Source of the DNA: a virus
IMG/VR virus record: IMGVR_UViG_3300031949_000004
Location: 94,224-158,223 of that record
Strand: one strand, 5' to 3'
Length of the DNA stretch: 64,000 bases
In this document: one piece after another, positions 23,000 through 59,509 of the stretch
Position numbering within the stretch: the first letter of the stretch is position 1
Layout: each line of letters starts with the position of its first letter
Position numbers and translations under genes: made by a program
Notes under the pieces: generated by a model
The model's database searches: none
Told to the model about the DNA's origin: nothing
Seen by the model: the letters and a program-made list of their open reading frames with translations, nothing else

Positions 23000-23001
23000 G
23001 G

Positions 23002-24943: not shown

Positions 24944-24948
24944 CTGAA

Positions 24949-26208: not shown

Positions 26209-26218
26209 GGCGATCCTT

Positions 26219-26773: not shown

Positions 26774-26786
26774 GAAAAAGGACTCT

Positions 26787-26895
26787 ATTCGCGATTCGCA
26801 AACGGCGCAAGACCAAACAATAGGTGAAAGAACTTTCACCAATTAAGTGGTTCACGACGCTGTCATTTCATTCGCAATTCGCGAATGGGCGCAAT
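26787..26895. promoter_or_regulatory. operator-like repeats in the divergent intergenic region
   Basis: Direct repeats ATTCGCGATTCGCAAACGGCGCAA (26787-26810) and ATTCGCAATTCGCGAATGGGCGCAA (26870-26894). An 18-bp perfect palindrome GGTGAAAGAACTTTCACC lies at 26823-26840. Confidence 0.4.
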
Positions 26896-28667: not shown

Positions 28668-28738
28668 CCAGGCATAGATGATTCCGGGGAGCGGAGTTCT
28701 CAAATCCTCTCCCCGGAACACTTGCACAAGGAAACACC

Positions 28739-29143: not shown

Positions 29144-29197
29144 TCATCTCGCTAGCTCAGCTAGCACAACCATCAACCATCATCGAGGAGAAAGAAA

Positions 29198-29536
29198 ATG
29201 TTGGATCAAGCAAAGCTGGCAGTCGTAGCCTACGTCGAGGTTTCGGGTGTCGACGGTTCGTCAACCCTCACGAACAGCGGTGTCGTCACGACCAGGCTGG
29301 CCCTGGGAACCTACGCCATCGACCTGCCCGCCGGGCAGTACCAGGCGTCTGACCGCGACCTGATCTTCGTTCAGGTCAAGGGCAGCAACCCGGCCATCTC
29401 GGCGGCCGAGACCGACACCGATCCCCAGCGCAAGCTGGTGTACGTCGGTTCCAGTGCCACGACGGCCACGGACACCGACTTCACCTGCATCATCTACCGG
29501 ACGGTGACTCCGCCGGCACCGGGCGGCCCCGCCTAG
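29198..29536 (+). CDS. MLDQAKLAVVAY family, copy 3
   Basis: Same termini as copy 1. Confidence 0.5.
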   Translation: MLDQAKLAVVAYVEVSGVDGSSTLTNSGVVTTRLALGTYAIDLPAGQYQASDRDLIFVQVKGSNPAISAAETDTDPQRKLVYVGSSATTATDTDFTCIIYRTVTPPAPGGPA

Positions 29537-29695: not shown

Positions 29696-30058
29696 ATGGC
29701 ATACGATCTCCTACTCCGCCGACTGACACGCGCCAACTGGGCTCGCCGCTCCACGCTCCCGGTTGTCGCGCCCGCTTCTCCGGTCTCGGGCTGGCCCCGG
29801 AAATCCATCTCCTGCGGTGTCGAACGTTCGCCTCGCACAGTGAAGGGCGAGATCGTAAACGGACGTCGCGTATCAATCGTTGGCGGTCCGGATGATCCAC
29901 TTGCCCAGCTCCCGGCAAAGGAGCGCAAGGCCGTAGCCCAGCTCATCGTTCTGCGCAAACGTGCCGACGATGGCAACGCGTCTGCTCAACGGATTGTCGA
30001 GGCCGTGGCCCGGTTGAAGATCTTCGTGTCACCGGCCGGCGAACCCGCGAAGCTCTGA
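29696..30058 (+). CDS. MAYDLL-family protein (basic, AxxGD-type motif)
   Basis: MAYDLLLRRL N-terminus. Paralogue of 30291-30641. Confidence 0.45.
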   Translation: MAYDLLLRRLTRANWARRSTLPVVAPASPVSGWPRKSISCGVERSPRTVKGEIVNGRRVSIVGGPDDPLAQLPAKERKAVAQLIVLRKRADDGNASAQRIVEAVARLKIFVSPAGEPAKL

Positions 30059-30290: not shown

Positions 30291-30641
30291 ATGGCATACG
30301 ACCTCCTGCTTCGCCGTCGGATCCGACGGAGCTACGCCCGCAAACCCACCGTCACGGTTCGCAGCACCGACAGCCTTGTGCTTACCGAACCTGAGAAAGC
30401 CTGGCTGGCTCGCATCGCGCTCTGCCGTGCGCAAGCCCAAGCGGGCGACAAGCGCGCCGCCAAGGACTGGAAGAAGACAGTCAAGCAGATCGTCGCGACC
30501 CGCCGCAAGGCCGCGCGAGGCGATGTGAAAGCCCAACGCACGGTCGCCGTGCTCGTGCAGTCGGGCATGTTCCCCAGCTCGAAGAAGCTCGCGCCCAAGG
30601 GCACCCGAGTCCTCAAGCCGCTCGTCGCTGGCAAGTGCTAA
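30291..30641 (+). CDS. MAYDLL-family protein (basic)
   Basis: MAYDLLLRRR N-terminus, plus AQAGDKRAAKDW...ARGDVKAQRTVAVL repeats. Confidence 0.45.
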   Translation: MAYDLLLRRRIRRSYARKPTVTVRSTDSLVLTEPEKAWLARIALCRAQAQAGDKRAAKDWKKTVKQIVATRRKAARGDVKAQRTVAVLVQSGMFPSSKKLAPKGTRVLKPLVAGKC

Positions 30642-30677: not shown

Positions 30678-31034
30678 ATGGGTTTCGCAAATTTCGACAA
30701 AGCAGGACTCGCCGTCATCGCCTACGCCATCGTCAACGCCGACGGAACATTTCGCGGCAGTAGCAATGTGACCTTGCTACCCCACGGCGCGGGCACGGGC
30801 AACTACACATTTATTGCCCCCTACGATCTCCAGGGCGTTCAAATCCCCTTGTTCTCGGCTGACGATCTGAGCATCGCCACGCTCATGGACGATGGATCTG
30901 GCGGCAACAGCATGATCCGCGTGAGCAACCTCGGTCCCTATGCCAAAGCAGTGATCGTTGGCGAGGTTGCCGGTCCTCCGGTTGATCGTGCCTTCTCGCT
31001 CTTGATCCTCCGCCAGCTCACCCAACAACCATAG
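30678..31034 (+). CDS. divergent member of the small beta-protein family
   Basis: MGFANFDKAGLAVIAY...LILRQLTQ parallels MLDQAKLAVVAY...IIYRTLTPP. Confidence 0.45.
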   Translation: MGFANFDKAGLAVIAYAIVNADGTFRGSSNVTLLPHGAGTGNYTFIAPYDLQGVQIPLFSADDLSIATLMDDGSGGNSMIRVSNLGPYAKAVIVGEVAGPPVDRAFSLLILRQLTQQP

Positions 31035-36566: not shown

Positions 36567-38348
36567 ATGCCAGTACAAGGTGGAAAACGCAGGGAATATC
36601 GTCCGGTGTGGTATGGCGAGAATAACACTTCACCTGTCCAAAACTACTCGGTTGGCAACTGGCTCACGTTCGCTGGGGGACCAAACCCAAACCTCGCGGC
36701 TATCGCCATCGGCAACAACGTTCTTCTCAATAACAGCTTTGGAAACGTAGCACTTGGGCAGGATATTACCGTAACCGGTTTTTACAGCGCCATCTGCGTC
36801 GGGCAACAACTTTCGGTTGGTTGCGCTAGCGGAACCTGCATAGGCCACAGCAGCACGATAGGTTCGGGGGGTGGCAATATAATAACCCTGGGTGACAGTC
36901 TCACTGTCCAGAATGGTGGTGGCGACATCACCTGTATTGGTTCCTTCTCGGAAATACAAACCCCCGGCAGCGGCCACATCTCCATAGGCCCTGACAATCG
37001 AATACTTGCAAATAGCGATGGCAACGTTTGTGTTGGTAGCAATCTCACCACCGGAGCTTTCGGTGACAACATTGTGCTTGTCGGCTACTCATTGTCAACC
37101 CAGGGCCAAGGCGGCAATCTCGTACTCATCGGTGCCCTCTCACGCACGTACACCAACTGCTCGGAAAGTGTATGTCTGGGAAACAACATGAATATCTTCA
37201 ACAACACAAACCGGTCGGTCTGTGTTGGCTACCAGTCAACCCTTGCACCAGAGACTGGCGACTGCGTCGTCGTTGGATCTGGCTCCATCATCTACAACAC
37301 CTCCATCCGTTCCACGGCCATCGGTTACGATGTCACCATCGGCGCGGCCACCAATGCCACGTTCTTCATGATCGTTCCCGACCTGGCAGATCTTGCCAAC
37401 AACGACTGGGTCTCGCTTCCGGATGGTCGTGGTGGCACCATCGAAGTCGAGTTCCAGGTCGACGGCAGCTTTGTTCCCTTCGGCCCGCCCCGGCTCGTGG
37501 CCGACGTACAATTCGCCGCCAATTCCACCGACGTTGGTTACATTCTCGTGGACACCTGGAACAGTGTCTACGGACTGCCCTACACATTCCCCATCCAAAG
37601 CGAAAGCGTCGGGGGCGACGGTCGCTGGACCGGAAACTTCATCTACCCGTCGCCCGGAGTCGCTGGCAACGGCTGGTCGGTCGTGCCCACCGTGGCTTCG
37701 GGCCTCTTCACGGGTTCGACATCCTTGGACGGCACCCAGACAGCTTCTCCCAACTGCGTATGCATCGGTTCGCTCAGTACGATCAACGGCAACTGTGCTG
37801 ACAGCGTCCTCATTGGTCACAACAGCACACTTACGGGACTCAACGGAGTGGCCATCGGAGCCGACGTGGTGTTGACAGGAAACGGCTGTGTCGCCATCGG
37901 TACGGGAGCCAGCACGAATGAGGTGGGCGGCATCGCCATCGGTTCAGGAACCATTTGCCACGATGGCGGCGGTCTGGCCATCTGTATAGGCGCGGAAGCT
38001 ACCGGAAACAACTGCATGGCCATCGGTCCTACCGCTCAAGCCACGGGAATCGCCGGTATCGCGCTCGGAGATCGCGCTGTCGCGAGTAGCTACGAATTCG
38101 TCGTCGGCGACTCAGAGAATATCTCCCCTATCAAGCCCTTCATTCACCACTTCGTGGTACGAGGTTTCGATCTCGTGGCAGTCACCCCCATCGACACCTT
38201 GTCCGTCATCGACAATCCATCTGTCGCCGGGGAAACCGGTCTCACCTTGACCTACTACAATGGCGTAACCGTCTCGAACAAAACCTTGAAAGCCAGCACC
38301 CTGGGCACCCTGCCCGCTGGCTCACTCGTCATCTACGTGGATCCATAG
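36567..38348 (+). CDS. tail-fibre-like protein with degenerate (V/I)xIGxxxxxxG repeats
   Basis: 593 aa. N-terminus GGKRREYRPVWYG and C-terminus SLVIYVDP are shared with the next gene. Confidence 0.6.
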   Translation: MPVQGGKRREYRPVWYGENNTSPVQNYSVGNWLTFAGGPNPNLAAIAIGNNVLLNNSFGNVALGQDITVTGFYSAICVGQQLSVGCASGTCIGHSSTIGSGGGNIITLGDSLTVQNGGGDITCIGSFSEIQTPGSGHISIGPDNRILANSDGNVCVGSNLTTGAFGDNIVLVGYSLSTQGQGGNLVLIGALSRTYTNCSESVCLGNNMNIFNNTNRSVCVGYQSTLAPETGDCVVVGSGSIIYNTSIRSTAIGYDVTIGAATNATFFMIVPDLADLANNDWVSLPDGRGGTIEVEFQVDGSFVPFGPPRLVADVQFAANSTDVGYILVDTWNSVYGLPYTFPIQSESVGGDGRWTGNFIYPSPGVAGNGWSVVPTVASGLFTGSTSLDGTQTASPNCVCIGSLSTINGNCADSVLIGHNSTLTGLNGVAIGADVVLTGNGCVAIGTGASTNEVGGIAIGSGTICHDGGGLAICIGAEATGNNCMAIGPTAQATGIAGIALGDRAVASSYEFVVGDSENISPIKPFIHHFVVRGFDLVAVTPIDTLSVIDNPSVAGETGLTLTYYNGVTVSNKTLKASTLGTLPAGSLVIYVDP

Positions 38349-38359
38349 GAGCAAAACAC

Positions 38360-38842
38360 ATGGCAATCACAGGTGGAAAACGCCGTGAGAATCGTCCCGT
38401 CTGGTACGGCAACACCAACAGCTCTGGCCAGAGCTACTCCATCGGTGATTGGCTCACCTTTATCAATCCGATCGGAACAACGAATTGCATCAGTATCGGC
38501 AACGGAAGCGCCATACCGCTCGGCCTAACCGCAGCCATCGCTCTTGGTATATCGACCAACGCCACGGGCTCTTACGCCATCGCCCTCGGTGCCTCGGCGG
38601 TCGCGGGTGCCAATACCATGATCGTGGGTGACAACACAAATCTCTTGAGAGCCATTCACCAGTTCACCGTACGCGGGCACAACGGCGGCGTGCTCGACAC
38701 CATCTCGGCCATCGACAATCCTGCCAGTGAAGCGTTTGGTCTCACCCTCGTCTACAACGCCGACGGCACCTTCAGCAACAAGACCGTCAAAGGACTCGTT
38801 TCACCGCCGGTCGGTGCCATCCTACTTTACGTGGATCCATAG
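38360..38842 (+). CDS. short paralogue of the tail-fibre-like protein
   Basis: 160 aa. N-terminus GGKRRENRPVWYG and C-terminus AILLYVDP. Confidence 0.5.
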   Translation: MAITGGKRRENRPVWYGNTNSSGQSYSIGDWLTFINPIGTTNCISIGNGSAIPLGLTAAIALGISTNATGSYAIALGASAVAGANTMIVGDNTNLLRAIHQFTVRGHNGGVLDTISAIDNPASEAFGLTLVYNADGTFSNKTVKGLVSPPVGAILLYVDP

Positions 38843-48315: not shown

Positions 48316-48750
48316 ATGAATCACAGCCAAATCGGACGTGGTGGCCATGGAGGACATGGAGGACATGGTGGTCGGGGCGGTCGGGGATTCGGCTATGGCC
48401 AAGGTTTCATTCCCTACTACGGCTACGGCTACCCTTATGACTACGCCCCGATCTACAACATCGTGGATCCTCTCTATGCAGATGACGACGACCTGGGCGA
48501 GGAAGAGCGCGAGCTGGCCCGCTCATGCGGCGCCGAGGAAGACGCGCTCATGCGCCGAACCTTGAACGGCATCCCGCACAACGACTATCGCGTGCTCGTG
48601 GTCGCCGCCGCCCGCAAGCTCGCCAAGAATCCACGCAATCCCACGACTAGGGACTACGCCTTAGCCAAAACCAAGATCGACGATGAGCTGGTCCGACGCG
48701 GACTCTCAGTCGTCGTACCCCACGCGCGTCCCGGTCGTGTGACCCGCTAG
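48316..48750 (+). CDS. hypothetical protein with Gly/His/Tyr-rich N-terminus
   Basis: GRGGHGGHGGHGGRGGRGFGYGQG... Confidence 0.4.
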   Translation: MNHSQIGRGGHGGHGGHGGRGGRGFGYGQGFIPYYGYGYPYDYAPIYNIVDPLYADDDDLGEEERELARSCGAEEDALMRRTLNGIPHNDYRVLVVAAARKLAKNPRNPTTRDYALAKTKIDDELVRRGLSVVVPHARPGRVTR

Positions 48751-49065: not shown

Positions 49066-49677
49066 ATGGCCGACAAGACCTACGGCGCGAAGTACGATCG
49101 GAAGCTCTCCGTCAAGGAGATCGCCGTGCGGATCCGCGCCGACATCAAGGACGCCATCACACGTGGTGAGATCCCCGCTGTCAAGATATCCGTGCGCAGC
49201 GATCGAAACTCCATCGACGTGACCATCATGTCCTGGCCGAAGGGCTTCCAAATCTTGAACCCCGAACGAGTGATCTACGACCACTTGCACCCGAATCAAT
49301 TCGTTGACGAACGCATCCTTCCCTTGCACACCGAAGAAGCTTCCGCCCTGCACAAGCACATCGAAAAGCTGCGCAACGCCTACAACTACGACGACTCGGA
49401 TCCGATGACCGACCACTTCGATGTCAACTACTACGGCAGTACCCAGTGGAACTGGGAAGCCGAACGCAACGCGCGCCAGGAACTTCTGCGCAGCTTGCCG
49501 AAGTACGTGCCTGGTCAAGACGCCAAGATCACCTCGGGGCCTTTCGCCGGCTGGTACAAGATTGTCGATGTCTACGAAAACGAAGACGGACTCAACGTCG
49601 AGCTGGCACGCAAAGGCATAGATCCCCATGTCGTCGTTAACGGTCCCGATCTCGCCCTCCTCAGTCTCATGGAGTAA
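49066..49677 (+). CDS. hypothetical protein
   Basis: 203-aa ORF. Confidence 0.45.
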   Translation: MADKTYGAKYDRKLSVKEIAVRIRADIKDAITRGEIPAVKISVRSDRNSIDVTIMSWPKGFQILNPERVIYDHLHPNQFVDERILPLHTEEASALHKHIEKLRNAYNYDDSDPMTDHFDVNYYGSTQWNWEAERNARQELLRSLPKYVPGQDAKITSGPFAGWYKIVDVYENEDGLNVELARKGIDPHVVVNGPDLALLSLME

Positions 49678-49681: not shown

Positions 49682-51490
49682 ATGTCGAAGAATCTCGCCA
49701 ACGATCTCATGATCACCACTTCCTACGACGATCCAGATCCAGACGGAACGGATGTCGACGGCATTCTTCCTTTGCTCACACCCTACTCCGAGGAAGACGA
49801 AAACGACGAAGCCGCCGAGGACAACGAGGAAAACGTCGCCATCGACACCGCCGGGGGCACCGAAATCATGGGCGCCTCCAAGAACAGGGCCGAAGAAGAA
49901 GAGCTGGAGGCCGAGATCGAACCGGGCTTCCGCGACATCGACTTGCCCAAAAACGAGAGAATGCCCGACGAAGATCCGGAAGGCTTTGCCGCCCTCCAAG
50001 AAGATCTCGAACCCGGCGAGGCTGAAGGCTACCTCGAATACATGCGCCCCCTCACGGCCGAAGAAGCCGAGCTGGTAGATGACCCGATGTTCAAAGATCT
50101 ACGCTGGGTCGACGACCCCGCGCACGTCCAGGACATCCTTCGCACCGGCAAAAACGAGCGAGGCATCGACAACCGCCTGAAGGACACAATCTACGGAGAC
50201 ATGCTCATGAAGAACGAAGAAGAACTCGCAGACATCCTCGACTCCGATAAGCTTGCAAGTTGGGGCGACAACTTCACACCCCTGCCCAAGACCTACGTTC
50301 CCACCCGTGATGCCAAGAAACTTGCGCTGGTGCGCGGACTCTCGCAAACGCTTCAGTGCGGTCATGCACGCTACCTCCGGGCGGCAGATCACACTGCCGG
50401 CGTGGCGATACGTCCGGGCTCGTACTACATGAACGTCGCCGGTCTGTGGACCCAAAACAAGCTTCGCCGGAACAACGTGCCGATGTCCCCCCGCTCGAAC
50501 TGGGCGCGTGTGTCCATGCCCGTCCTGCTCGGCGCCGCGCAAACCCTTCTCGACGAAACGAGTGGCACGCGACTCTTCGATGCCCAAGGCCACGCCGACA
50601 TGATGGGCTGGGGACTTTCGTCCCTGAATCCAATCAAGGCCGTCAAGAGCGTCGCGAAGCGCGCCAAAGGCGCGGCTTCATCGATCCACAAATACACAGT
50701 CAAGATGCCCGCCAAGTACGCCTACAAGTACACGGTCAAGATGCCCGCCAAGTACGCCTACAAATACGGCGTCAAGATGCCTGCCAAGTACGCCTACAAG
50801 GGCGCCAAGGTCGTGGGCAAGGTCGCACAAAGTCTCGCTCTGCGTCCCATCAAGGCCATCATCCGCAAGTTCACCAACACAGCGGTGAATCGTCGCGCGG
50901 CAGCCATCGCCAAACAACGCGGTCTCCCCAAGCCCGGTCCTGCCGAACGCACCGCCGCGCTTACCTGGGCCAAGAATCTCGTGCGCAAGACGAACAGGCT
51001 ATACGGCTCAGCCATCGCCTCGCTCATGGGCGCGGAACACGGCGTCCAAGCAGCGGACATCTCTTTGGGTAATGCCGATAACGCCACCATCGGAAACGAC
51101 GTGATGGGGACAGCCGGACTCATCATGCTCGGACCCATCGCGCTCATCAGCCTGCTCACGAAGCTCTTCAAGACCAAGTCAGCACAGCAAGCTGCCCCAC
51201 CCTTGCCAGGCGAAGATCCGAATGCCGAAGATCTGGGCACGCCCGACGAAGGTTACGAAGAAGATGCTTCCGAAGAAAGCTACGCCGAAGAAAGCTATCC
51301 CGAAGAAAGCTATCCCGAAGATTCAGCCGGGGGACCAAGCAGGGGTGGTATTGGGAAACGTGTTGCCGCCACGTTGCTCAGAAATTTTCCAAACGGCATT
51401 CCCCGCGCAAGGCTCGCCCAGCTTCGCCTGATCTCGGCAGCCGTCGCCAAGGCACTGATCCAAGCAGGCAAGCTCAAGGTCATCGGATGA
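49682..51490 (+). CDS. large acidic/repeat protein (putative internal virion/ejection protein)
   Basis: 602 aa. The N-terminus is acidic. It has 3 copies of KYTVKMPAKYAY and EESY repeats. Its C-terminal tail is shared with 51782-52129. Confidence 0.5.
   Translation: MSKNLANDLMITTSYDDPDPDGTDVDGILPLLTPYSEEDENDEAAEDNEENVAIDTAGGTEIMGASKNRAEEEELEAEIEPGFRDIDLPKNERMPDEDPEGFAALQEDLEPGEAEGYLEYMRPLTAEEAELVDDPMFKDLRWVDDPAHVQDILRTGKNERGIDNRLKDTIYGDMLMKNEEELADILDSDKLASWGDNFTPLPKTYVPTRDAKKLALVRGLSQTLQCGHARYLRAADHTAGVAIRPGSYYMNVAGLWTQNKLRRNNVPMSPRSNWARVSMPVLLGAAQTLLDETSGTRLFDAQGHADMMGWGLSSLNPIKAVKSVAKRAKGAASSIHKYTVKMPAKYAYKYTVKMPAKYAYKYGVKMPAKYAYKGAKVVGKVAQSLALRPIKAIIRKFTNTAVNRRAAAIAKQRGLPKPGPAERTAALTWAKNLVRKTNRLYGSAIASLMGAEHGVQAADISLGNADNATIGNDVMGTAGLIMLGPIALISLLTKLFKTKSAQQAAPPLPGEDPNAEDLGTPDEGYEEDASEESYAEESYPEESYPEDSAGGPSRGGIGKRVAATLLRNFPNGIPRARLAQLRLISAAVAKALIQAGKLKVIG
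50690..50797. repeat. 36-nt tandem repeat, three copies, in-frame (KYTVKMPAKYAY)
   Basis: aaatacacagtcaagatgcccgccaagtacgcctac occurs three times with few substitutions. Confidence 0.8.
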
Positions 51491-51765
51491 ACCGAGACGA
51501 AAAAGAAGCACTCCGCGAAAACTCGCTCGATGGCGTCGACGAGTTCGCCCGCGATGTTACGGGTTTCCCGGCCTTCCTTTCGACCCTCGCAATCGATCAG
51601 CTCATCAAGCCCACCATCTCCGAAGTCGTCAGTCCATGGCGCAAAAAAGCCGTTCACGGCGCCAAGAGCAGCACTGCCAAAGCCGTCCGCAAAACCGTGT
51701 CCAAGTCGCCGAACGAACAAAGCTCCCAAGCAGATCACAACGAAGATTCCGACGAAAAGTCGTAG
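51487..51765 (+). CDS. MNRDE-family small protein 1
   Basis: ATGA overlap. The N-terminus MNRDEKEALRENS..DEFARDV is shared with the next two genes. Confidence 0.45.
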   Translation: MNRDEKEALRENSLDGVDEFARDVTGFPAFLSTLAIDQLIKPTISEVVSPWRKKAVHGAKSSTAKAVRKTVSKSPNEQSSQADHNEDSDEKS

Positions 51766-51781
51766 TCACCAAAGGAACATC

Positions 51782-52129
51782 ATGAACCGCGAAGAAAAAG
51801 AAATTTTGGCCGAAAGCCGCAGCCGCAGTGGCGCCGAGCTAGCCCGTGAAGTTGCCGGAGGTCTCGATGACCAAGGCTGGGGTTGGGGCTCGATCAAACG
51901 TGGTCTCCGGTCATCGGTCACTGCGCCTTTGAAGGCTGCAAAATACTCGCTCACGATCCCCTACAGGGGAGCCAAAGCCTACCTCACCAACAAGCCCGGC
52001 AATCTCGCCACCAAGTTGCTCTCGACATTCCGCCAGGGCATCACGCTCGAACAACTCACTCGCATGTCCCCCGCTCTCAGGAAACAGGTCCAGAAACTCA
52101 TCGCCGCCGGTAAGATCCGTCTCGCATGA
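51782..52129 (+). CDS. MNRDE-family small protein 2
   Basis: MNREEKEILAESRSRSGAELAREVAGG. The C-terminus LIAAGKIRLA resembles the C-terminus of 49682-51490. Confidence 0.45.
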   Translation: MNREEKEILAESRSRSGAELAREVAGGLDDQGWGWGSIKRGLRSSVTAPLKAAKYSLTIPYRGAKAYLTNKPGNLATKLLSTFRQGITLEQLTRMSPALRKQVQKLIAAGKIRLA

Positions 52130-52178
52130 TCGGGCGGCCAACCCCTTCGACGAACAACCTCGAAACAAGGATCCCATC

Positions 52179-55100
52179 ATGAACCGTGACGAACAAGAAG
52201 CCAACACCCAGAACCAGAGCCGCAGCGGCGTCGAGCTGGCCCGCGAGGTTGCACTCGGTGCCCTGCCCGCAGAGATCTTGTCGGCCGGCGATGCTCCCGC
52301 TTCCCCGGTCTACGTCTTCGACGTGCAGGCGGCCGTGAACAAGGCAGTGAGCAAAGCCACGGCAAGCAAGCGCATCTGGGATCGCAAGATCCTCGGCATC
52401 GCCTGCCAGGCCGCCCAACCAGCCGTCGAACAGGGCTTGCGCCAAGCCGGCAAGGCATTCACGCGCGACGAGCTGCGCGCGGCAATCCGCTTGCACGTGA
52501 AAGCCTACGTGGATCAGTTCGCCGTGACCTTGCCCCGCGACGTGATCTTGGGCAACACGCAGCTCGAAGCCGTGGCCGCCGACATCTGCGGTGGGCTCAA
52601 CATGCCCTGGCAGGCGTTCCTACCGCCTCAAGTCCAGTTCGCCCTGGCAGCGAGCAAGGCCGGCAAACCCCAGGCAACCTCATGGCTCAAGAAGCTCTTC
52701 AGTCGCGGCAAGAAAGCCTCCCCGGCTCCCGCTGCACCGGTTGCCGCAAGCGACAAGACGGCTCCTGCATCACCTGCACCTACGCCGGCAGCCACGGAAG
52801 CTGCCCCCGCAAGCCCACCCCCGGCAACGGCCGGCTCGTCCGATTCACTCGGTGACAGTGAACTCGGAGCCTGGTTGCACAAGCTCAATCCTGCCTATTG
52901 GATCAAGAGCAGCCAGGAGAAGAAGTTCATCGACGCCGAAAAACAGGCTTGGATCGACAACGCCTACAACCTCAAACAACAAAAGAAGAAGGAAGCGGTG
53001 ATGTCCCAGGCTGAAAAGGCGCTCGCCGCCAAGCAGGCCTCGGCCCTCGCCTACCAGCGTACATCCGAGCTGGAAGCCCAGCTCAAGTCCATCGAATCCC
53101 AGGTCGCTGGTGCCGTTGGTCCTGCTGAAATCATGGGCTCCATCGGTCCCGCTGAGATTATGGGCAAAGCGGAAATCGTCGGAACAAAGCTCGACGATCC
53201 GTTCGACAGCAAGATCCCCGAGGAAGCCGCCGCACCCGTGCTCAAGAAGGTTGCGAAGGCTCGCCAGCTCAACGAAGCCAATCGACAAGATCTCGAAACC
53301 ATCTCGACCAAGCTCAGAAGCGGTGAAGGCTTGATGCCGGACGAATCCGCCAAACTGCTCATCTTGCTCGCGCGCAACGAACAACTCCACGAATTCCGCA
53401 AGAGCCTCGTCTCGGGCAAGCTGTACGCCACGTCCCCCGCGCGGGCACAGATCCAGCGCCAGGTCGTACTCGGTGCCGTCAAGGCCCTCACGCCCACCGA
53501 ACAACAACAACTGGCCTACATGATGAAGCTTGCCAAGCAAGGCAATCCTGCCGCCATCAAAGCAATCGAACAGCTACGCCAGCAAGGCTACTCGGTCATG
53601 GGCTGGGGGATCAGCGACGCATTCAAAGCCGTCACTTCACCCATCTGGAAGCCAGCCAAATACTTGGGCAAAGGTCTCAAATGGACGGGCAAGAAGCTCG
53701 GCATCATCAAGGGCAAGGCCAGCCCCGAGCAGGTGCGCATGGCCAGGCTCAAGTCCGCACAGAAACGCGCGCAGGCTGCCCAAGCCCGCGCTCGTGCTGC
53801 CGATGCCCAGTCCGAGGCTGAATACCGTGTCCAGCAACAGCTCGCCTCCGCCGCCGATGCGGAAGCTGATGCCGCCGATGCGGAAGCCACGGCCAAGGAA
53901 GCCCAGATGCAGACCGCCGAAGCCGAGTACATTCCCGGCCAAACGGCTGAAACCGACGAATCCGGTTTGCCTCCGGCCCCGCCACCGCCCGCATCGGTCA
54001 TCAACGCACCCTATGCGTTCCGTGGCGTCAAGCCCATCATAACCCCGCTTGCTGCAACCCCGTCGCCCGAGGCAGCAAAGATCAAGGCCGTCAAAAAAGC
54101 AATCTTGAACAAAAAGCACCCCAAGGCCGCCAAAATCTTGTCCAAGGCCGAAGAAGACTCCCCCGGCGGCATGAAGCTGCGCGCTTCGATGAAGCTCTAC
54201 GCTGGCGCCAAGCTCAATCCCAAGGGGCCAGAGGCGCAAGCCATCCGAGTCATGGCCGCCAGGGCAAGGAAGGGCGACAAGCAAGCCCTCGCCGACATCC
54301 ACGCGGTCAAGCTGGCTCAGATCGCCGTCAAGGCCGACCAGAAAGCCGGACGCCAGACAGCGGCGCTCTACGCGGCACGAGCACGCAAGAAGAAGGTGGC
54401 AGCCGTGCAGAAAAAGATGGAAATAGCGACCTCGAACGTCCTCATCCGGCGCTCGCGCACGCACCAGCTCGCCAAGCTCGCCAAGGTCGAACGCAAGGCT
54501 GCTGCCGGCGACAAGAAGTGCCAAACCTTCATCAAGCAAGTCGCGACCAAGGCCAAGGCTGGGGATCCGAAAGCCAAGAAAGTGGCCGCCGGCCTCGTCC
54601 TCGCCAAGCACGTTCGCACCTCGGCGCCTACACGCCGCGAGCGCAAGAACCTCCGCGACGCGCACAAGCTCGTGGCCAAAGTCGCCAAAGGCAATCGCAA
54701 AGCCACAGCCCAGGCTCGCGTGATCGTCGCCGCCGCCAAGGCCGGCAACCCGAACGCACAACGGGCGCGCAGGCGCATGCAGACGGCTGCGGCCGTCCAT
54801 CAGACCATCGCCACGGGCACCATCGTCCTGCCCGCCGTGATCGCGACTGCCGAGCGCCAGGGCAAGAAACACAAGCAGAACCAGCAGAAGGTGGCAGTGG
54901 CCGAAACCAAGCTCGCCCGAGGCACCGCCTCACGTGAAGAATTGCAAGCTGGCGCCAAGGCCGCCGCCGACAACGGCGACAAGACCAAGGCCGGCGAGCT
55001 GCTCGCCGCTTCCGCTGCTGCGCCTTCCAAAGCCGAATCGCTCAAGAAGACGGGCGCTGTGCTCGCGGCTGCCGCCAACGACAACCCCAAAGCTCAAGCT

Positions 55101-56393
55101 TCGATGGAGAAAGCCCAAACCCTGGCCGCGCAAGGAGATCCATTGGGCATGGAAGCCATGGGCAACGTCGTGGCCGTGAAGAACCTCGATCAGATCTCCA
55201 AGGGCAAACCCATGGACAAGGAAATGGCCGAGGCCGTGCAGCTTACGCAGGCGGCTGCCCAGGGCGACGAGGTCGCCGCCGCCAAGCTCAAGAGCAATCT
55301 CGAAGCGGCTAAGACCGGTAACGGCGTTGCCGTCAAGGCCACCGTGGTCGCGGCTGGCGCAATCGCGGTCGCCAAATCCCTGGCCAACAACCCGGTGGCA
55401 CGCGACGAATGGCTCGCCAAGGCAGGGGTCAAACCCGACGAGGCATCCGAGCTGCAAAACACCGATCTATCCTCCCGACCGTCGGGACCGCACCCATTCT
55501 CGTCGCTCGGCCGCGATGAGCTGGCCCCCATCACAGGCCTGTGGTCGCTGGTCGTCGAGTCGTTGCGAGCCCTCACGCTCGCGACCCCCGACCCCGTGGC
55601 CAACTACCGGCAGGGTGTCGCCGCTCGCGCGGCGAGCCGCCGCTTGCTCACTGCTTCCTCGACTACGGGCGATGAACCAGGCAAGCGTCGCCTGTTCCGC
55701 GATCTGGACGACAACGAACCTACGCCACCCAAACCCGAGCCTCCGAAGCCAGGTAAAACCGGCAAGCCAACCAAGAAGAAAGATCCGGAAGCCCCGGCTC
55801 GCGTCAAGTTGGATCCGGAAGAGCAATGGCGCGTTCACGGCAGCAGTTCCGGCAAAGCCGAACGCCCGGTGGTGAACGACAGCGATCAGGCCATCGAGGC
55901 TCTGGCCAAGCAGACCAAGAAACCCGAGATGCAAAAATACATTCTCGGAATCAAGAAGTACGGTCCGCAAGATCCAGAACGCCAGGGCCGCATGCTCTAC
56001 GCCCTTGAAGTCGTACAAATGGAGAAGGTCGCGGGCATGGGCAACGACGATCGCCAAACCAAGCTCCGCGAAAAGATCGCCCAGCTTCGTAAGAAGTCGC
56101 CCCAGACAGACGCCGACAGGCGCGAGCTGGAGCAGGCAACCGAACAGCTCGAACGCGCCGAAGCCATGAGCGGCGAAAGCCTGCCCGACATCGCACGCAA
56201 GAAGCTGGCTGACACGACGGCAGAACGCCTAGCCAAGATCAAGCATGCCGCCGGCAAGGGCGACAAGAACGCCGCCGCGAAGTGGGAGATCGTCAAGAAA
56301 AACCACGCCAGTGCCAAGGCCAAGGCCGCCAAGGGCGACGCCAAGGCCAAAGACTTGCTCGCGGTCCTCGAAGCCACCAAGCTGTTCTCGTGA
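52179..56393 (+). CDS. giant Ala/Lys-rich repeat protein with MNRDE-type N-terminus (tape-measure or internal virion protein candidate)
   Basis: 1404 aa. MNRDEQEANTQNQSRSGVELAREVALG. It has >15 degenerate ~20-aa repeats of the form A[KA]xGDxKA......V..A. It sits directly upstream of a membrane protein and an SLT. Confidence 0.6.
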   Translation: MNRDEQEANTQNQSRSGVELAREVALGALPAEILSAGDAPASPVYVFDVQAAVNKAVSKATASKRIWDRKILGIACQAAQPAVEQGLRQAGKAFTRDELRAAIRLHVKAYVDQFAVTLPRDVILGNTQLEAVAADICGGLNMPWQAFLPPQVQFALAASKAGKPQATSWLKKLFSRGKKASPAPAAPVAASDKTAPASPAPTPAATEAAPASPPPATAGSSDSLGDSELGAWLHKLNPAYWIKSSQEKKFIDAEKQAWIDNAYNLKQQKKKEAVMSQAEKALAAKQASALAYQRTSELEAQLKSIESQVAGAVGPAEIMGSIGPAEIMGKAEIVGTKLDDPFDSKIPEEAAAPVLKKVAKARQLNEANRQDLETISTKLRSGEGLMPDESAKLLILLARNEQLHEFRKSLVSGKLYATSPARAQIQRQVVLGAVKALTPTEQQQLAYMMKLAKQGNPAAIKAIEQLRQQGYSVMGWGISDAFKAVTSPIWKPAKYLGKGLKWTGKKLGIIKGKASPEQVRMARLKSAQKRAQAAQARARAADAQSEAEYRVQQQLASAADAEADAADAEATAKEAQMQTAEAEYIPGQTAETDESGLPPAPPPPASVINAPYAFRGVKPIITPLAATPSPEAAKIKAVKKAILNKKHPKAAKILSKAEEDSPGGMKLRASMKLYAGAKLNPKGPEAQAIRVMAARARKGDKQALADIHAVKLAQIAVKADQKAGRQTAALYAARARKKKVAAVQKKMEIATSNVLIRRSRTHQLAKLAKVERKAAAGDKKCQTFIKQVATKAKAGDPKAKKVAAGLVLAKHVRTSAPTRRERKNLRDAHKLVAKVAKGNRKATAQARVIVAAAKAGNPNAQRARRRMQTAAAVHQTIATGTIVLPAVIATAERQGKKHKQNQQKVAVAETKLARGTASREELQAGAKAAADNGDKTKAGELLAASAAAPSKAESLKKTGAVLAAAANDNPKAQASMEKAQTLAAQGDPLGMEAMGNVVAVKNLDQISKGKPMDKEMAEAVQLTQAAAQGDEVAAAKLKSNLEAAKTGNGVAVKATVVAAGAIAVAKSLANNPVARDEWLAKAGVKPDEASELQNTDLSSRPSGPHPFSSLGRDELAPITGLWSLVVESLRALTLATPDPVANYRQGVAARAASRRLLTASSTTGDEPGKRRLFRDLDDNEPTPPKPEPPKPGKTGKPTKKKDPEAPARVKLDPEEQWRVHGSSSGKAERPVVNDSDQAIEALAKQTKKPEMQKYILGIKKYGPQDPERQGRMLYALEVVQMEKVAGMGNDDRQTKLREKIAQLRKKSPQTDADRRELEQATEQLERAEAMSGESLPDIARKKLADTTAERLAKIKHAAGKGDKNAAAKWEIVKKNHASAKAKAAKGDAKAKDLLAVLEATKLFS

Positions 56394-56402: not shown

Positions 56403-56660
56403 ATGGGCGCCCTCCTCCTGGCCTTCGGGCTCGTCTCCGGGATCGTCGGCCTGGCATGGAACCAGGCTGACGATCCGACGATCAAACGACTCGTCGCCCA
56501 AAAACGCCTGCACTTCATCGCGGGCAAGCCCGACAGCAAGATCACACTAGATCAAGCCGAGGACGGTTTGGTCCTGGCGCGACATCACGGTAACAAGGCG
56601 CTCGTCATGAGGTTCGGGAAGCTGGTAGCATTGCTCCGAAAGAGGAGGCCCACCCCATGA
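56403..56660 (+). CDS. small membrane protein
   Basis: N-terminal TM MGALLLAFGLVSGIVGLAW. Confidence 0.35.
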   Translation: MGALLLAFGLVSGIVGLAWNQADDPTIKRLVAQKRLHFIAGKPDSKITLDQAEDGLVLARHHGNKALVMRFGKLVALLRKRRPTP

Positions 56661-57292
56661 ACCTACTCCCCATTCTCATCAGCTTGCCCCTGGCGCTCGC
56701 CACCATGCTCGCCTGTTCCCCGCCAGCCCTGGCCTCCATGTCCCCGGCGCCGGTCATGAGCCTCACCCCGCTCATGAGCCTCGCACCACCAGCAAAGCGG
56801 CCAAAGTGCCCGGAAGGCCGGCAACCCGAGCTGGTGGTCAAGCTCTCCAAGAAGTGGTCCAAGGTCTTCCACATCCCGAAATCGTGGATCCGCTCCCAGG
56901 CATACGTCGAAACCCAAGACAGACCCAATGCCGTCAATCCCGTCACGGGCGCCATGGGCGTCATGCAGATCATGCCCCGGACTTACGAATGGCTCCTGCC
57001 GAGCCTCAAGAAAACCAAGCTCGCAAAGAGCAAGCTCGTCAAGGAAACCCTGCTCCTCGACACCGGCAACCCGAACGATCTCATGCATCCCGATCTCAAC
57101 ATCATGATGGCGTCCTATCTCATGGTGATCTTGAAACGGAAGTTCGGGAACGATCATACCAACGTCGCCGCCGCCTACGACGCCGGCCACGTCCGCATCG
57201 CCAAGTGCCTCGACGAGGGCACGGCCTTCCCCGCCCAGGTCCAAGAATACCTCGCCCGCGTCGAGGCCGCCAAGCGACGAGGATTCATGTAA
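56657..57292 (+). CDS. lytic transglycosylase (SLT domain) with signal peptide / possible lipobox
   Basis: ATGA overlap. YVETQDRPNAVNPVTGAMGVMQIMPRTYEWL is an SLT motif. Signal peptide ...ATMLACS. Confidence 0.7.
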   Translation: MNLLPILISLPLALATMLACSPPALASMSPAPVMSLTPLMSLAPPAKRPKCPEGRQPELVVKLSKKWSKVFHIPKSWIRSQAYVETQDRPNAVNPVTGAMGVMQIMPRTYEWLLPSLKKTKLAKSKLVKETLLLDTGNPNDLMHPDLNIMMASYLMVILKRKFGNDHTNVAAAYDAGHVRIAKCLDEGTAFPAQVQEYLARVEAAKRRGFM

Positions 57293-57615: not shown

Positions 57616-57996
57616 ATGTCCGACGGCACGCCGATCCCCATCAACCCCAGCCAGGAAGTCACCCAGAACTACCGACCTGGCGCCGCGCCGAGCCTCCCCG
57701 CCAACAACCCCTGGAAGCTGCTCGCACTCTTCCTGAGCATGGTCATCGCGGGCGGAACCATCATCTCCGTCATGGGCAAGGCATTCTACGTCACGCGCGC
57801 CGAATACACCGAGCGCGTGCAGAAGGATGCCATCGAGCAGACAACCCTCAAGCAGACGCTCGACAACGTGCGCATCGCCCTCGACAACCAGAAGACGGAA
57901 TTCAAGGATCAGAAAACGGAATTCAAGGCACTCTCCGACAGCGTTTACGTCCTCAAGTACGAGCTGGCCAAGGAAGGGAGCCGCAACCAGCGATGA
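57616..57996 (+). CDS. single-TM protein with periplasmic coiled-coil (holin or i-spanin candidate)
   Basis: RBS CAAGGAG. TM LLALFLSMVIAGGTIISVM followed by a coiled-coil. Confidence 0.45.
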   Translation: MSDGTPIPINPSQEVTQNYRPGAAPSLPANNPWKLLALFLSMVIAGGTIISVMGKAFYVTRAEYTERVQKDAIEQTTLKQTLDNVRIALDNQKTEFKDQKTEFKALSDSVYVLKYELAKEGSRNQR

Positions 57997-58490
57997 AAAC
58001 CATGAACAATCGTGATCTGGCGCTCGCCATCGCCATGATAGCAATCGGCACGGCACTCTACTTCGTCATCATGGCATCCCTAGAGATGCCGCTGCGATGG
58101 ATCGTGCTGGCCGTCTTCCTCAGCGGCGTCCTCCTCGTGCTCGGCGGCTCCGTCAGGAAAGCCTGGAAACAACGCAAGCTCATGGCCATCCGGCACACCC
58201 TGATCGTGGAAGAGCACAACCACGGCGAGGTTACCTTCGCCCCCGAGCAAAAACTCCAGAGCCCTACCCTCTACCTATGGGCAAACCGTCCCGGCATCAC
58301 GGTCATCGAGGTGTGGTTCGCCGGCATCGGCACCCTGCTCACTTTGCGCAGCCTCGACTACTGGAGGGACGGCGTCACCTACGAAGGGATCCTCGATTCC
58401 CGAAACAGCTTGCGGCTGCTCATGCGAAACGACAACAGCTTCCCCACAACCGTTCGCGCGAAGATCATCGCGACCAAGGAAAAGAGATAG
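57993..58490 (+). CDS. two-TM membrane protein (holin-like candidate)
   Basis: ATGA overlap. TMs LALAIAMIAIGTALYFVIM and WIVLAVFLSGVLLVLGG. Confidence 0.45.
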   Translation: MKTMNNRDLALAIAMIAIGTALYFVIMASLEMPLRWIVLAVFLSGVLLVLGGSVRKAWKQRKLMAIRHTLIVEEHNHGEVTFAPEQKLQSPTLYLWANRPGITVIEVWFAGIGTLLTLRSLDYWRDGVTYEGILDSRNSLRLLMRNDNSFPTTVRAKIIATKEKR

Positions 58491-58492: not shown

Positions 58493-59509
58493 ATGGCACA
58501 GATGGATCCCAAAAACCTGCTCATGCAACAACAGCAAGCCGAACGAGATGCGGCCCTTCGTTCGGGCAAAATCGGCCCCAAGATGCTAGACGATTCCGAC
58601 AACAACATCGGCAACGGAGAAACACTCAATCCCAACGCCTTGAGCGCCGGACTTCTTTACTCGACAACACCTCCAGCCTATAGAGCCAGACTTCTCAACC
58701 TGACCGGCTCATCAAGATATGGACAATCAATAACCGTTGTCTTCACCGCAGCACGTGTCTCCAACCAACAGGGATTTGTTGGTCCTGTTACTGGAATCAT
58801 CGAGTTTGGAAACGGATCCCTGGCAACAGTGATAGAAATTGACATTCCCGTTGGACCGTACACCGGGGATTTTGCCATCGTGTCCCCAGCCACACAACCA
58901 CAGGATTCCGGCGCAGTCATTCAAGTGCCTACCGGGACGCTTCGTGCCTTCACCCGATACGACAACACACTGATCACACCAACGCTTCAAGGATACGCCT
59001 GGGGTGCACTAGGATCCCCGAACCCGTTACCTGCGGGAGCAGGTCCGTTCGCGCCAGCCTACAACACATCACCACTTTTGCGACCAATCGGCTCCGTGCA
59101 AACCAAAGCCTTCGCTGCCTACTTCGGACGCCACTACTCCAGGGCATACAAAACACAATACCTGTTCCTGGGCAATGGTGGTGGTGCTGCTCAAATCTTC
59201 ACCGCAGCACCGATACCACCAGCCATAGCCCCCACGGCTGTATACTACTGCATCCCTCCCTTTGCCAAAAACGTGCGCCTGGTCCGCTTTCCCGAAACCT
59301 CAAGCATGACCATTCAGGTTTTAGGACAAGAAGTCCTGGGCAGCGCAGCAGCGATAGCCGTGCCGTTCATCGAGGCACACGTCGTCCCAGCAGGACCGAT
59401 GATCAACCCCATCGTTCTCGATGGGCACAGCAACATCGTAGGTGTTTCAAGCACAGCGGTCGGCGACATCGTTTGGGCGGTCAAACTGATCTACGAAATC
59501 GGATTCTAG
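58493..59509 (+). CDS. hypothetical protein
   Basis: 338 aa. Start lies 3 nt after the upstream stop. Confidence 0.45.
   Translation: MAQMDPKNLLMQQQQAERDAALRSGKIGPKMLDDSDNNIGNGETLNPNALSAGLLYSTTPPAYRARLLNLTGSSRYGQSITVVFTAARVSNQQGFVGPVTGIIEFGNGSLATVIEIDIPVGPYTGDFAIVSPATQPQDSGAVIQVPTGTLRAFTRYDNTLITPTLQGYAWGALGSPNPLPAGAGPFAPAYNTSPLLRPIGSVQTKAFAAYFGRHYSRAYKTQYLFLGNGGGAAQIFTAAPIPPAIAPTAVYYCIPPFAKNVRLVRFPETSSMTIQVLGQEVLGSAAAIAVPFIEAHVVPAGPMINPIVLDGHSNIVGVSSTAVGDIVWAVKLIYEIGF

Follow-up and report, generated by a model that had tools for sequence, protein, structure and literature searches.

Shared terminal peptides connect a basic helical giant protein with its neighbors in an uncultivated phage-like element

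INTRODUCTION

The internal core, or ejectosome, of T7-type phages includes gp14, gp15, and gp16, and gp16 has an SLT domain. In phage T4, the internal proteins IPI, IPII, IPIII, and Alt carry an N-terminal capsid targeting sequence, or CTS (PMC3012670). The head and ejection proteins of SPN3US lose N-terminal propeptides of 20 to 254 residues after an A-X-E motif (PMC10052503), and PVC payloads are loaded via N-terminal signals (PMC9054023). Here, we describe four consecutive genes (g602, g92, g115, and g1404) within a 64-kb stretch of DNA (referred to as the window) from an uncultivated, phage-like element with a minimum length of 194 kb. We propose, at somewhat less than even confidence, that these genes form one functional module and represent a previously undescribed protein family.

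RESULTS

The four genes lie at the coordinates given in the original prediction, and all of the open reading frames (ORFs) are on the + strand. The module and its neighbors are as follows.

49066..49677, + strand: g203, LPD29-like, directly upstream of the g602 module
49682..51490, + strand: g602 (ORF and composition)
51487..51765, + strand: g92, the first small MNRDE-tagged protein (ORF; the g602 stop and g92 start overlap as ATGA)
51782..52129, + strand: g115, with an MNRDE-type tag, a variable middle, and a g602-type C-terminal tail
52179..56393, + strand: g1404, a basic all-alpha giant (ORF and composition)
56403..56660, + strand: g85, small, with an N-terminal transmembrane segment and a basic C-terminus (hydropathy)
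56657..57292, + strand: SLT lytic transglycosylase (PF01464, E = 2.4e-15) with a hydrophobic, signal- or SAR-like N-terminal segment
57616..58490, + strand: g126 and g165 (hydropathy)

A membrane protein (g85) and the SLT immediately follow g1404, as originally predicted, and the position of g85 directly 3' of the giant is conserved. Further downstream, hydropathy indicates that g126 has a transmembrane segment and a coiled coil in an i-spanin-like architecture and that g165 is a multipass membrane protein; both are kept in five related loci (L002, L005, L006, L009, and L010). The SLT matches PHROG families of endolysins and internal virion proteins, and together with the flanking membrane proteins it looks like a holin/endolysin/spanin-type lysis cassette. 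Because the SLT is missing after the giant in one relative (L004), it lends weak support to a role in the virion. On the other side of the module, g203 has a weak match to Pfam LPD29 (E = 0.003, below the cutoff), a match to phrog_1926, annotated as "released from the phage upon host infection" (E = 8e-9), and 30 to 32% identity by tblastn to hypothetical proteins of mycobacteriophages Myrna and Phabba.

We recognized no capsid, portal, terminase, protease, or tail genes in the window or in the ~20-kb flanks in seven related contigs. Lacking any recognized capsid, portal, or terminase gene, the element has weak support for its phage identity, which is suggested by the style of gene organization and by phage-like hits to a tail fiber (phrog_9017), a virion structural protein (phrog_19200), and a sigma factor, all of which are weak. 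The giant family comprises 42 homologous clusters, with 158 matches among 1.84 billion (1.84e9) representative proteins, and has no match in Pfam, PHROGs, NCBIfam, the PDB, GTDB genomes, IMG/VR, 50,697 deposited phages, or 72,556 plasmids. The g602 family comprises 27 clusters, all of them metagenomic. The P0002 and P0004 contigs both retain the trio of tagged genes (g92, g115, and g1404), with a 95-residue gene at the g92 position in P0004, and dS between genomes that keep the trio is about 0.7 to 0.97. Relative to the L006 orthologs, dN/dS was 0.30 for g602, 0.40 for g92 (52% identity), and 0.22 for g1404.

The N-termini of the trio begin with MNRDEKEALRENSLDGVDEFARDVTG (g92), MNREEKEILAESRSRSGAELAREVAGG (g115), and MNRDEQEANTQNQSRSGVELAREVALG (g1404). 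Local alignment of the first 30 residues gave scores of 76, 52, and 46, far above the background of 15.2 +/- 5.3 obtained by pairing every gene in the window with every other (3828 pairs), which bears out the claim of a common MNRDE-type start. The g115 tag is 63% identical to that of g1404 over 27 residues (BLASTP), and 6 of the 17 identical residues are encoded by different codons, indicating that the tag is conserved at the protein level. MNRDE is also the most conserved stretch of the giant family, whose overall identity is only 30 to 50%. A second shared element, likewise anticipated, is found at the C-termini of g602, which ends in RARLAQLRLISAAVAKALIQAGKLKVIG, and g115. This tail is roughly 30 residues long, and when a tail hidden Markov model (HMM) was run against every ORF in the window and in four related loci, it matched the g602 and g115 families only (E = 2e-7 to 5e-16, with g115 at 5e-16; next best, 0.46). 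The positions of these elements are as follows.

51395..51487, + strand: g602 C-terminal tail (tail HMM)
51782-51862, + strand: g115 tag
52037-52126, + strand: g115 g602-type tail

The g602 tail is kept in L002, L005, L006, L009, and L010. In L006, the g115 ortholog is 219 residues long (versus 115), and the conserved parts are its two ends only. Other paralog sets with common ends are also present in the window. Collectively, these sequence comparisons support the conclusion that the peptides shared at these ends are modules subject to selection, and they look like assembly or packaging labels.

The giant itself is a 1404-residue, 149-kDa protein with 19.4% Ala, 10.9% Lys, a pI of 9.9, and a net charge of +82. 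This composition confirms the original description of an Ala/Lys-rich protein, and the high helicity claimed for it agrees with an AF2 model that is all alpha. The model contains several confident helical domains and a 450-residue hairpin array, with six disordered linkers between them. The regions of g1404 are as follows.

52179..52316, + strand: N-terminal extension, residues 1 to 46 (MNRDExEA motif, variable spacer, and LGxLPAEIxG motif)
52323..52703, + strand: helical N-domain, residues 49 to 175 (AF2 pLDDT about 85 to 92)
52911..53117, + strand: single long helix or coiled coil, residues 245 to 313, ending in KSIESQ (AF2 and family consensus)
53118..53198, + strand: disordered linker with three tandem PAEIMG/KAEIVG motifs (pLDDT < 50)
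54066..55433, + strand: helical-hairpin array, residues 630 to 1085, with G[DN]x motifs in three-residue turns
55671..56210, + strand: hypervariable region, residues 1165 to 1344 (0 to 540 residues across the family)
56211..56390, + strand: C-terminal double-GD module, containing KGDKNAAAKW and, further on, KGDAKAKDLLAVLEATKLFS (family conservation)

The N-terminal extension is predicted to be disordered (pLDDT 37 to 44), and its motifs are kept across P0001 to P0033. Domain lengths are fixed in the family (122 to 126 residues throughout for the helical N-domain) and linkers range from 0 to 540 residues; the hypervariable region of P0002, for example, carries insertions of 175, 37, and 165 residues. 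Such linker insertions take the giant from 1404 to 1757 residues in relatives that are 74 to 77% identical; across the clade, its length spans 1273 to 1757 residues. Among the first 34 members of the family, 33 have the C-terminal double-GD module. Hydropathy revealed no signal peptide or transmembrane segment in g92, g115, or g1404, and residues 1047 to 1068 of the giant form one weakly hydrophobic segment. The original prediction described g1404 as built from degenerate repeats of ~20 residues. Profile-profile self-comparison, which paired several segments at 87 to 96% probability, supports internal duplication, but there is no regular 20-residue tandem array; the repeats amount to 11 or more G[DN]x motifs in the turns that separate helices of differing length. 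Comparison with Sel1-like and TPR helical repeats gave no family-model match and no solenoid fold match.

The double-GD module is also found outside the giant. An HMM built from the last 60 residues of g1404 identified one of two small MAYDL-tagged proteins in the window.

29696..30058, + strand: MAYDL-tagged protein of 120 residues that contains one GN unit and ends in ARLKIF (likeness by eye; HMM not significant)
30291..30641, + strand: MAYDL-tagged 116-residue protein with the C-terminal double-GD module of the giant (HMM E = 1e-10)

The proposed presence of the g1404 unit in both proteins thus stands on the HMM for that at 30291 and on inspection by eye for that at 29696. The HMM also matches MAYDL-tagged proteins in L002 and L004, so that reuse of the module is seen in three genomes.

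In g602, an acidic N-terminus is followed by a conserved N-domain (residues ~75 to 269), Lys/Tyr-rich tandem repeats, a hydrophobic segment kept in the family consensus (AGLILLGPIGLIA), acidic EESYP repeats, and the basic tail. Three of its features were located as follows.

49862..49876, + strand: TEIMG motif within the acidic, disordered N-terminus (repeat search and motif analysis)
50688..50800, + strand: three tandem 36-nt repeats encoding KYxVKMPAKYAY (90 to 93% identity; repeat search)
51101..51157, + strand: hydrophobic, transmembrane-like segment, residues 474 to 492 (Kyte-Doolittle 19-residue mean of 2.09)

A motif of the form E/Q-[FIL]-[VML]-G is enriched in the disordered linkers of g1404 (4 observed versus 0.4 expected; P about 0.001), and relatives of the giant have 1 to 6 copies of [EQ][FIL][VML]G in the linker equivalent to 53118..53198. 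An E-I-M-G-type motif also occurs in the acidic N-terminal region of the protein encoded at 27603. In a distant clade (P0035 to P0039, P0041, and P0042), residues 75 to 269 of g602 are fused ahead of the g1404 core (residues 230 to 1180) in a single protein.

DISCUSSION

We tentatively favor, at somewhat less than even confidence, the reading that the module encodes a virion-internal or ejection-type protein set in which the end peptides would serve as docking or targeting signals, by analogy with the T4 CTS. In this proposal, g1404 would be a multidomain helical protein composed of an N-domain, a long helix, more helical domains, a hairpin array, and very variable disordered linkers. The selected and transferable parts would be the MNRDE-type N-terminal extension, the g602-type basic C-terminal tail, and the double-GD C-terminal module, and such labels may bring different proteins together where assembly takes place, most likely within the virion (the head core or an ejection-protein complex). 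The g115 protein, with the N-terminal label of the giant and the C-terminal label of g602 on either side of a replaceable middle, would then serve as a bridge or carry cargo. The E/Q-[FIL]-[VML]-G linker motifs are candidate maturation-protease sites or binding motifs. An A-R-E sequence occupies residues 21 to 23 of g115 and g1404, at the end of the tag, and an A-X-E-like site is not conserved family-wide. Several observations are consistent with this proposal, including the resemblance of the upstream g203 to LPD29 and phrog_1926, the distant-clade fusion of part of g602 with the g1404 core, and a net charge that is expected of a protein packed with DNA. The predicted architecture, in which the tag and the motif-bearing linkers are disordered, the linkers vary in length, and the domains are confidently modeled and fixed in length, also argues for it. 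Counting against it are the failure to recognize capsid, portal, terminase, protease, or tail genes in the window and related flanks, the absence of the family from IMG/VR and from the deposited phages, and the lack of family-wide conservation of the A-X-E-like site.

The original prediction offered a tape-measure or an internal-ejection set with modular terminal peptides; the modular, selected ends held up, and an internal or ejection set is the best available reading. A tail tape-measure protein, with g92 and g115 as assembly chaperones and the SLT as a tail-associated lysin, is very unlikely. Although g1404 is long, helical, and Ala/Lys-rich, has a weakly hydrophobic segment, and is preceded by two small genes and followed by the SLT, it has no tape-measure match in Pfam, PHROGs, or NCBIfam (E <= 0.01 to 0.1), and its profile has no relative in the PDB. 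The AF2 model has folded domains, a compact hairpin array, and disordered linkers rather than a continuous extended helix. A tape-measure protein would be expected to scale with the tail and to keep much the same length in close relatives; the giant shifts by 350 residues between relatives that are 74 to 77% identical, which may point away from such a role. In addition, g92 and g115 each have their own ATG and tag in a +1 frame relation, not that of a -1 G/GT frameshift pair, and their L006 orthologs overlap by ATGA rather than at a -1 slippery site. Fusion to g602 is no feature of tape-measure proteins, no tube, sheath, or baseplate genes were recognized adjacent to the module, which is followed instead by membrane proteins and an SLT whose N-terminus is signal-like and that L004 lacks. 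The shared ends could also be mere remnants of local segmental duplication or recombination that have no signaling role. The genes are adjacent, other paralog sets in the window have common ends, and mosaicism through illegitimate recombination is common in phages; however, the tagged trio is retained at the dS values given above, the ends of g115 are kept while its middle is replaced, MNRDE is the best-conserved stretch of a divergent family, and conserved residues differ in synonymous codons, and we regard this explanation as very improbable.

Two other roles were considered. The proteins may be a scaffold-like or capsid-size-determining internal set, with basic helix-turn-helix C-terminal modules that would bind the shell, and at maturation they would be expelled or degraded instead of passing into the host. 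The scaffolding protein of P22 binds coat through its C-terminal domain, and the proteins here are extended, helical, and modular, reuse basic helix-turn-helix ends on several small proteins, and have disordered linkers with repeated short motifs that are candidate protease sites. No coat protein or protease was found as a partner, however, and the hypervariable insertion region and LPD29-like neighbor suit delivered cargo better, making a scaffold quite unlikely. A nonvirion, envelope-spanning or membrane apparatus (for lysis, superinfection exclusion, or conjugation/type IV-like transfer), in which the basic C-terminal tails would be secretion signals, might account for the membrane proteins that always follow the module, the signal-bearing SLT that usually does, and the conserved hydrophobic segment of g602. 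Genes resembling PcfJ, ArdA, and polyvalent proteins, typical of conjugative elements, lie nearby, and the lineage is not in IMG/VR. We nevertheless consider such an apparatus distinctly unlikely, since no VirB4, VirD4, relaxase, pilin, or other secretion ATPase gene was found in the window or related-locus flanks, plasmids gave no match, neither a signal peptide nor a transmembrane segment occurs in g92, g115, or g1404, and the gene density, anti-defense genes, and fiber-like paralog sets look phage-like.

A broader and unlikely, though not far-fetched, reading is that the element belongs to a deep unrecognized lineage of large viruses or virus-like particles without detectable hallmark genes. 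There, a combinatorial code of N-terminal (MNRDE-type and MAYDL-type) and C-terminal (AGKIRLA-type and double-GD) peptides would route dozens of proteins to a particle or compartment, with g1404 as the central basic helical organizer. The lineage that carries the module consists of elements of about 100 to 194 kb that are unseen by current virus catalogs and family libraries, and the specificity of the giant core profile, evident from its rare matches, makes it a marker with which to find and bin this dark-matter lineage. If the labels are sorting signals, they could be used directly to load foreign proteins into particles.

Comparison of the favored virion-internal or ejection set with described systems reveals partial likenesses. 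As in the T7 ejectosome, consecutive genes encode mostly helical proteins of rising size, with a lytic transglycosylase in the block. Tape-measure proteins and their G/GT chaperones resemble the module in size, helicity, and Ala/Lys richness and in having two small genes upstream but differ in that the proteins here have no family match, a folded multidomain build, a length that varies among relatives, and no frameshift arrangement. The ejection or inner-body proteins of phiKZ-like giant phages, SPN3US among them (PMC5694885, PMC10052503), are also large internal proteins of a large-genome element, and the A-R-E of g115 and g1404 fits the A-X-E propeptide motif; however, there is no homology, the motif is not conserved in the wider family, and no protease or capsid genes were found here. 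Payload signals of eCIS/PVC particles (PMC9054023, PMC11495950) are likewise disordered N-terminal peptides, which steer diverse cargo into a phage-derived particle as the labels here may do, but PVC signals are not strongly conserved, and no sheath, tube, or Pvc15 ATPase was recognized in our case. In the T4 CTS system, as here, neighboring genes encode otherwise dissimilar or hypervariable basic proteins that have only a short conserved N-terminal peptide in common. The CTS has no sequence similarity to the tag, which is longer (about 25 to 45 residues) and for which targeting is a proposal, with no gp21-type protease or L/I-x-E site identified; unlike the T4 set, the module also has C-terminal labels and a 1404-residue structural giant among their bearers. 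If these labels do sort proteins, they would constitute a second, independent case of the T4 CTS principle, and a richer one because two N-terminal and two C-terminal labels occur in varied combinations.

Adjacent genes share terminal peptides

The giant gene g1404 (genes are named here by residue count) lies in a tight, co-directional run that extends from g203 to g338, and the gene boundaries in this run match those called publicly for the source contig. A scan for promoters and terminators found sites no more commonly than expected by chance, and none beyond chance breaks the run.

Genes of the run around g1404 (window positions)
49066-49677, + strand: g203, open reading frame (ORF)
49682-51490, + strand: g602, ORF
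51487-51765, + strand: g92, ORF whose start overlaps the g602 stop
51782-52129, + strand: g115, ORF
52179-56393, + strand: g1404, ORF
56403-56660, + strand: g85, one transmembrane segment and a basic tail
56657-57292, + strand: lytic transglycosylase (SLT) with a hydrophobic signal or SAR-like N terminus
57616-57996, + strand: g126, transmembrane segment and coiled coil (i-spanin architecture)
57993-58490, + strand: g165, multi-pass membrane protein
58493-59509, + strand: g338, two beta-sandwich domains

Three consecutive genes, g92, g115, and g1404, had been predicted to carry a common MNRDE-type N terminus (MNRDEKEALRENSLDGVDEFARDVTG, MNREEKEILAESRSRSGAELAREVAGG, MNRDEQEANTQNQSRSGVELAREVALG), and our analysis confirmed this. 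A comparison of the 30 N-terminal residues across the 88 predicted window proteins gave the trio scores of 76, 52, and 46; the background was 15.2 +/- 5.3. The g115 and g1404 N termini use different codons at 6 of their 17 identical residues, indicating selection on the peptide and not on an RNA element. The C-terminal tail that g602 was proposed to share with g115 (..ITLEQLTRMSPALRKQVQKLIAAGKIRLA) also held up: across 2176 six-frame ORFs from the window and four related loci, an HMM of the tail matched those two families only. Orthologues of g115 (115 versus 219 residues) align at their two ends, the N-terminal tag and C-terminal tail, and nowhere else, the middle having been replaced.

The original prediction further assigned an AxxGD unit of the giant to small MAYDLL proteins. 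Sharing with the giant was indeed found, but the motif is actually the giant's last 60 residues (..KGDK.A..KW....KGDAKAK..VA.L.ATGLF). An HMM of this C-terminal module matched the protein at 30291 (E = 1e-10) and MAYDL-tagged proteins of related loci L002 (2.5e-18) and L004 (5e-6 and 1e-4). The MAYDL-type peptide is a second N-terminal tag, M[AS][YFH]DL[LIA].[GRK]......[WYF][SA][RI], and is far more widespread than MNRDE, occurring in six window genes (29696, 30070, 30291, 60537, 62516, and 63093, all +) and in two to six genes per related locus (L002, L004, L005, L006, L009, and L010). Beyond this tag, the proteins bearing it are unrelated to one another, and they include membrane-anchored ones and ones with the giant's C-terminal module. 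A segment, GWGIS..K..P.KY, seemingly common to g1404, g602, and g115 reached an HMM E value of just 0.04, and its sharing is therefore treated as unproven.

Predicted architecture of the giant

As predicted, the giant is rich in alanine and lysine (19.4% and 10.9%, respectively); its pI is 9.9 and its net charge +82. Residues 1 to 1190 were modeled with AF2 from a 34-sequence alignment, giving a mean pLDDT of 72 and values of 88 to 93 over residues 630 to 1085. The G[DN]x motifs at 699, 777, 795, 856, 933, 986, 1029, and 1047 fall exactly in three-residue interhelix turns of this model. The degenerate 20-residue units described previously are better described as a helix, a G-[DN]-x turn, and a helix. 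True internal duplication is supported by hhalign of sub-alignments, in which four segment pairs reached probabilities of 96%, 95%, 90%, and 87%. Across giants, the folded segments are near constant in length (122 to 126, 83 to 84, and 107 to 111 residues, with a hairpin array of 366 to 464), and the linkers span 43 to 248, 4 to 69, 15 to 55, and 0 to 540 residues, the last containing three insertions in the giant of homologous cluster P0002. L005 encodes the giant in two overlapping ORFs (1229 and 277 residues; 10001-14493), a split that may stem from a frameshift or an assembly error or may mark a pseudogene.

Following the long helix of g1404, a disordered linker (residues 314 to 340; pLDDT < 50) contains PAEIMG, PAEIMG, and KAEIVG. 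At the same linker, relatives have between one and six copies of the corresponding motif, [EQ]-[FIL]-[VML]-G (e.g., AQFVGAGAQFVGAA and GEFVGEAFVGEEFVG). Among window proteins, g1404 has 4 copies versus 0.4 expected (P about 0.001), and g602 has one (TEIMG) in its acidic N-terminal region. Such repeated short motifs in disordered segments beside folded domains look like protease sites or docking motifs and may be either. Variant forms (TEIIG, AQFVG, and DDLMG) occur in a 198-residue protein at 27603-28199 (+), in which an acidic N terminus with GLTEIIG, GAQFVG, and DDLMG is followed by a basic stretch and then by a beta-rich C-terminal domain; this may be a processed structural protein.

Relatives form a small metagenomic lineage

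Homologues of g1404 form 42 clusters at 90% identity, all of them metagenomic, with contigs reaching 194 kb; those of g602 form 27. A HMMER scan of 1.84 billion representative proteins, based on a trimmed alignment of the giant, gave just 158 matches to the core profile, and Pfam found nothing in ten of the most distant. Among 50,697 phage records, megablast and tblastn found no match for the locus, g1404, SLT, a 593-residue fibre-like protein, or the 27603 protein; the sole matching query was g203, with weak matches to mycobacteriophages Myrna and Phabba. No match to g1404 was found in 72,556 plasmids, nor by pattern scans of IMG/VR (with a single sequence and with a profile) and GTDB genomes. 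Rfam gave nothing on the window, and PDB sequences gave a chance coiled-coil match alone (E = 0.04; giant profile and phmmer of g602). The proteins of the g602/g1404 module are, at the level of sequence, new families with no detectable relatives outside this lineage. The module is borne by JGI metagenome contigs of 55 to 129 kb, none of them in IMG/VR by pattern scan, and virus detection based on hallmark genes seems to miss the lineage.

Seven related contigs keep the order of a 190-residue membrane protein, two small genes, the g602 homologue, and the giant, followed sometimes by g85, usually by SLT, and by transmembrane coiled-coil, multi-pass membrane, and ~320-residue beta-sandwich proteins. 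Accessory inserts differ per genome and include TnpB, RES-Xre, HepT/MNT, ArdA, and PcfJ+HNH. A 144-residue window protein (48316-48750, +) has a Gly/His/Tyr-rich low-complexity N terminus (GGHGGHGGHGGRGGRGFGYGQGFIPYYGYGYPYDY) and a conserved C-terminal half (..ALAK.KID..L...G......A.PGR.T.); every related locus has this C-terminal half just upstream of the g602 homologue. The tagged trio is not a one-off, being present also on the P0002 contig, where genes of 687, 90, 219, and 214 residues precede a 1757-residue giant, and on the P0004 contig (857, 95, 118, and 1423 residues). Values of dN/dS were 0.30 for g602, 0.40 for g92, and 0.22 for g1404, at a dS of 0.7 to 0.97.

A distant clade (P0035-P0039, P0041, and P0042) joins g602 residues 75 to 269 to the N-terminal side of the g1404 core (230 to 1180) in one polypeptide ending in a ..L.FL...GVKVET tail. 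This fusion connects g602 with g1404 in Rosetta-stone fashion. An hhalign comparison of the two families (94% probability) was left unused because fused sequences in the alignment confound it.

Nature of the element

Recognizable window genes encode a Ro60/TROVE protein, a sigma factor, an RNA polymerase alpha C-terminal-domain-like protein (2274-2681, +), a RecD-like helicase, a glycan-modification cluster, toxin-antitoxin and anti-defence-type proteins, and fibre-like proteins (YadA-head repeats; PHROG tail fibre and virion structural matches). Several paralogue sets have common N- or C-terminal ends in the manner of tail-fibre sets. None of the window genes was recognizable as a capsid, portal, terminase, or protease gene; g338 was examined as a double-jelly-roll capsid protein, which would imply a giant tailless virus, but it has two beta-sandwich domains and gave no convincing capsid match. 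We judge the element to be phage-like. Since no hallmark gene was recognized and searches of IMG/VR, GTDB genomes, deposited phages, and plasmids found no family member, this is a judgement and not a demonstration.

The Ro60/TROVE-vWA gene (39-1316, +; also in L008), whose full 530-residue product is truncated at the window edge, adjoins TnpB and an AcrVA2-like gene that lie upstream of the window; Rfam matched no Y-RNA-like element within the window. ARAGORN called a tRNA-Arg(CCG) at 1780-1846 (-); given its location within a called + strand gene, and with no tRNA found by Rfam at gathering threshold, this may be a false positive. One gene among 57 ORFs scanned encodes a sigma-70 region 4 protein (phrog_351). 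The minus-strand cluster at 16422-26842 (sulfotransferase, class I methyltransferase, NAD-dependent epimerase/dehydratase, and a weak papain-like protease match) may be a glycan or surface-modification island. Paralogues with shared ends comprise three or four beta-rich proteins of ~120 residues (28284-29536 and 30678-31034), 593- and 160-residue proteins alike at both termini and not in the middle (36567-38842), and three proteins with an N-terminal NP.VV.IANQG motif (32856, 39268, and 39725); this looks like fibre or spike modularity.

Possible roles of the tagged proteins

A tape-measure role for g1404, one half of the original prediction, is now quite unlikely: no tape-measure model in Pfam, PHROGs, or NCBIfam matches, the predicted architecture is folded and multi-domain, giant length is unstable among close relatives, and each of the two small genes is a tagged gene in its own right rather than half of a frameshifted chaperone pair. 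Nor does SLT with its membrane-protein flanks support a tail-lysin role; SLT is absent after the giant in L004, and from architecture SLT, g85, g126, and g165 are a probable lysis-type cassette. We consider a scaffold-like or size-determining internal protein unlikely, and an envelope or transfer apparatus with C-terminal secretion signals rather improbable. Least credible is that the shared ends are functionless duplication remnants; MNRD(E/K) at the extreme N terminus is near invariant in a giant family otherwise 30 to 50% identical.

We tentatively favor, at somewhat less than even odds, a single assembly in which the four genes encode virion-internal, ejection-type or core/scaffold-like proteins whose terminal peptides would act as address or docking labels. 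The sharing of ends is itself real, and it is both conserved and unusual. The N-terminal label would be the MNRDE extension, predicted to be disordered; the C-terminal labels would be the basic, amphipathic g602-type tail and the double-GD helix-turn-helix module also found on MAYDL-tagged small proteins. With the giant's N-label and the g602 C-label flanking a replaceable middle, g115 has the look of a bridge or cargo slot, and the giant's hypervariable region may carry cargo too. The giant's high positive charge would suit co-packing with DNA, and the LPD29-like neighbor g203, with its match to phrog_1926 ("released from the phage upon host infection"), would fit a delivered-protein block.

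The closest precedents for such labels are the T4 capsid targeting sequence, the only peptide common to diverse internal proteins (PMC3012670), the SPN3US propeptides, which are cut after A-X-E in head and ejection proteins (PMC10052503), and the N-terminal loading signals of PVC payloads (PMC9054023). An A-R-E is present at residues 21 to 23 of g115 and g1404 and is not conserved family-wide, so processing after the tag is speculative. The principle of shared terminal targeting peptides on internal proteins, which we infer here, is already known; the combination of two N-terminal and two C-terminal labels, including on a 149-kDa helical-repeat giant, would be new.
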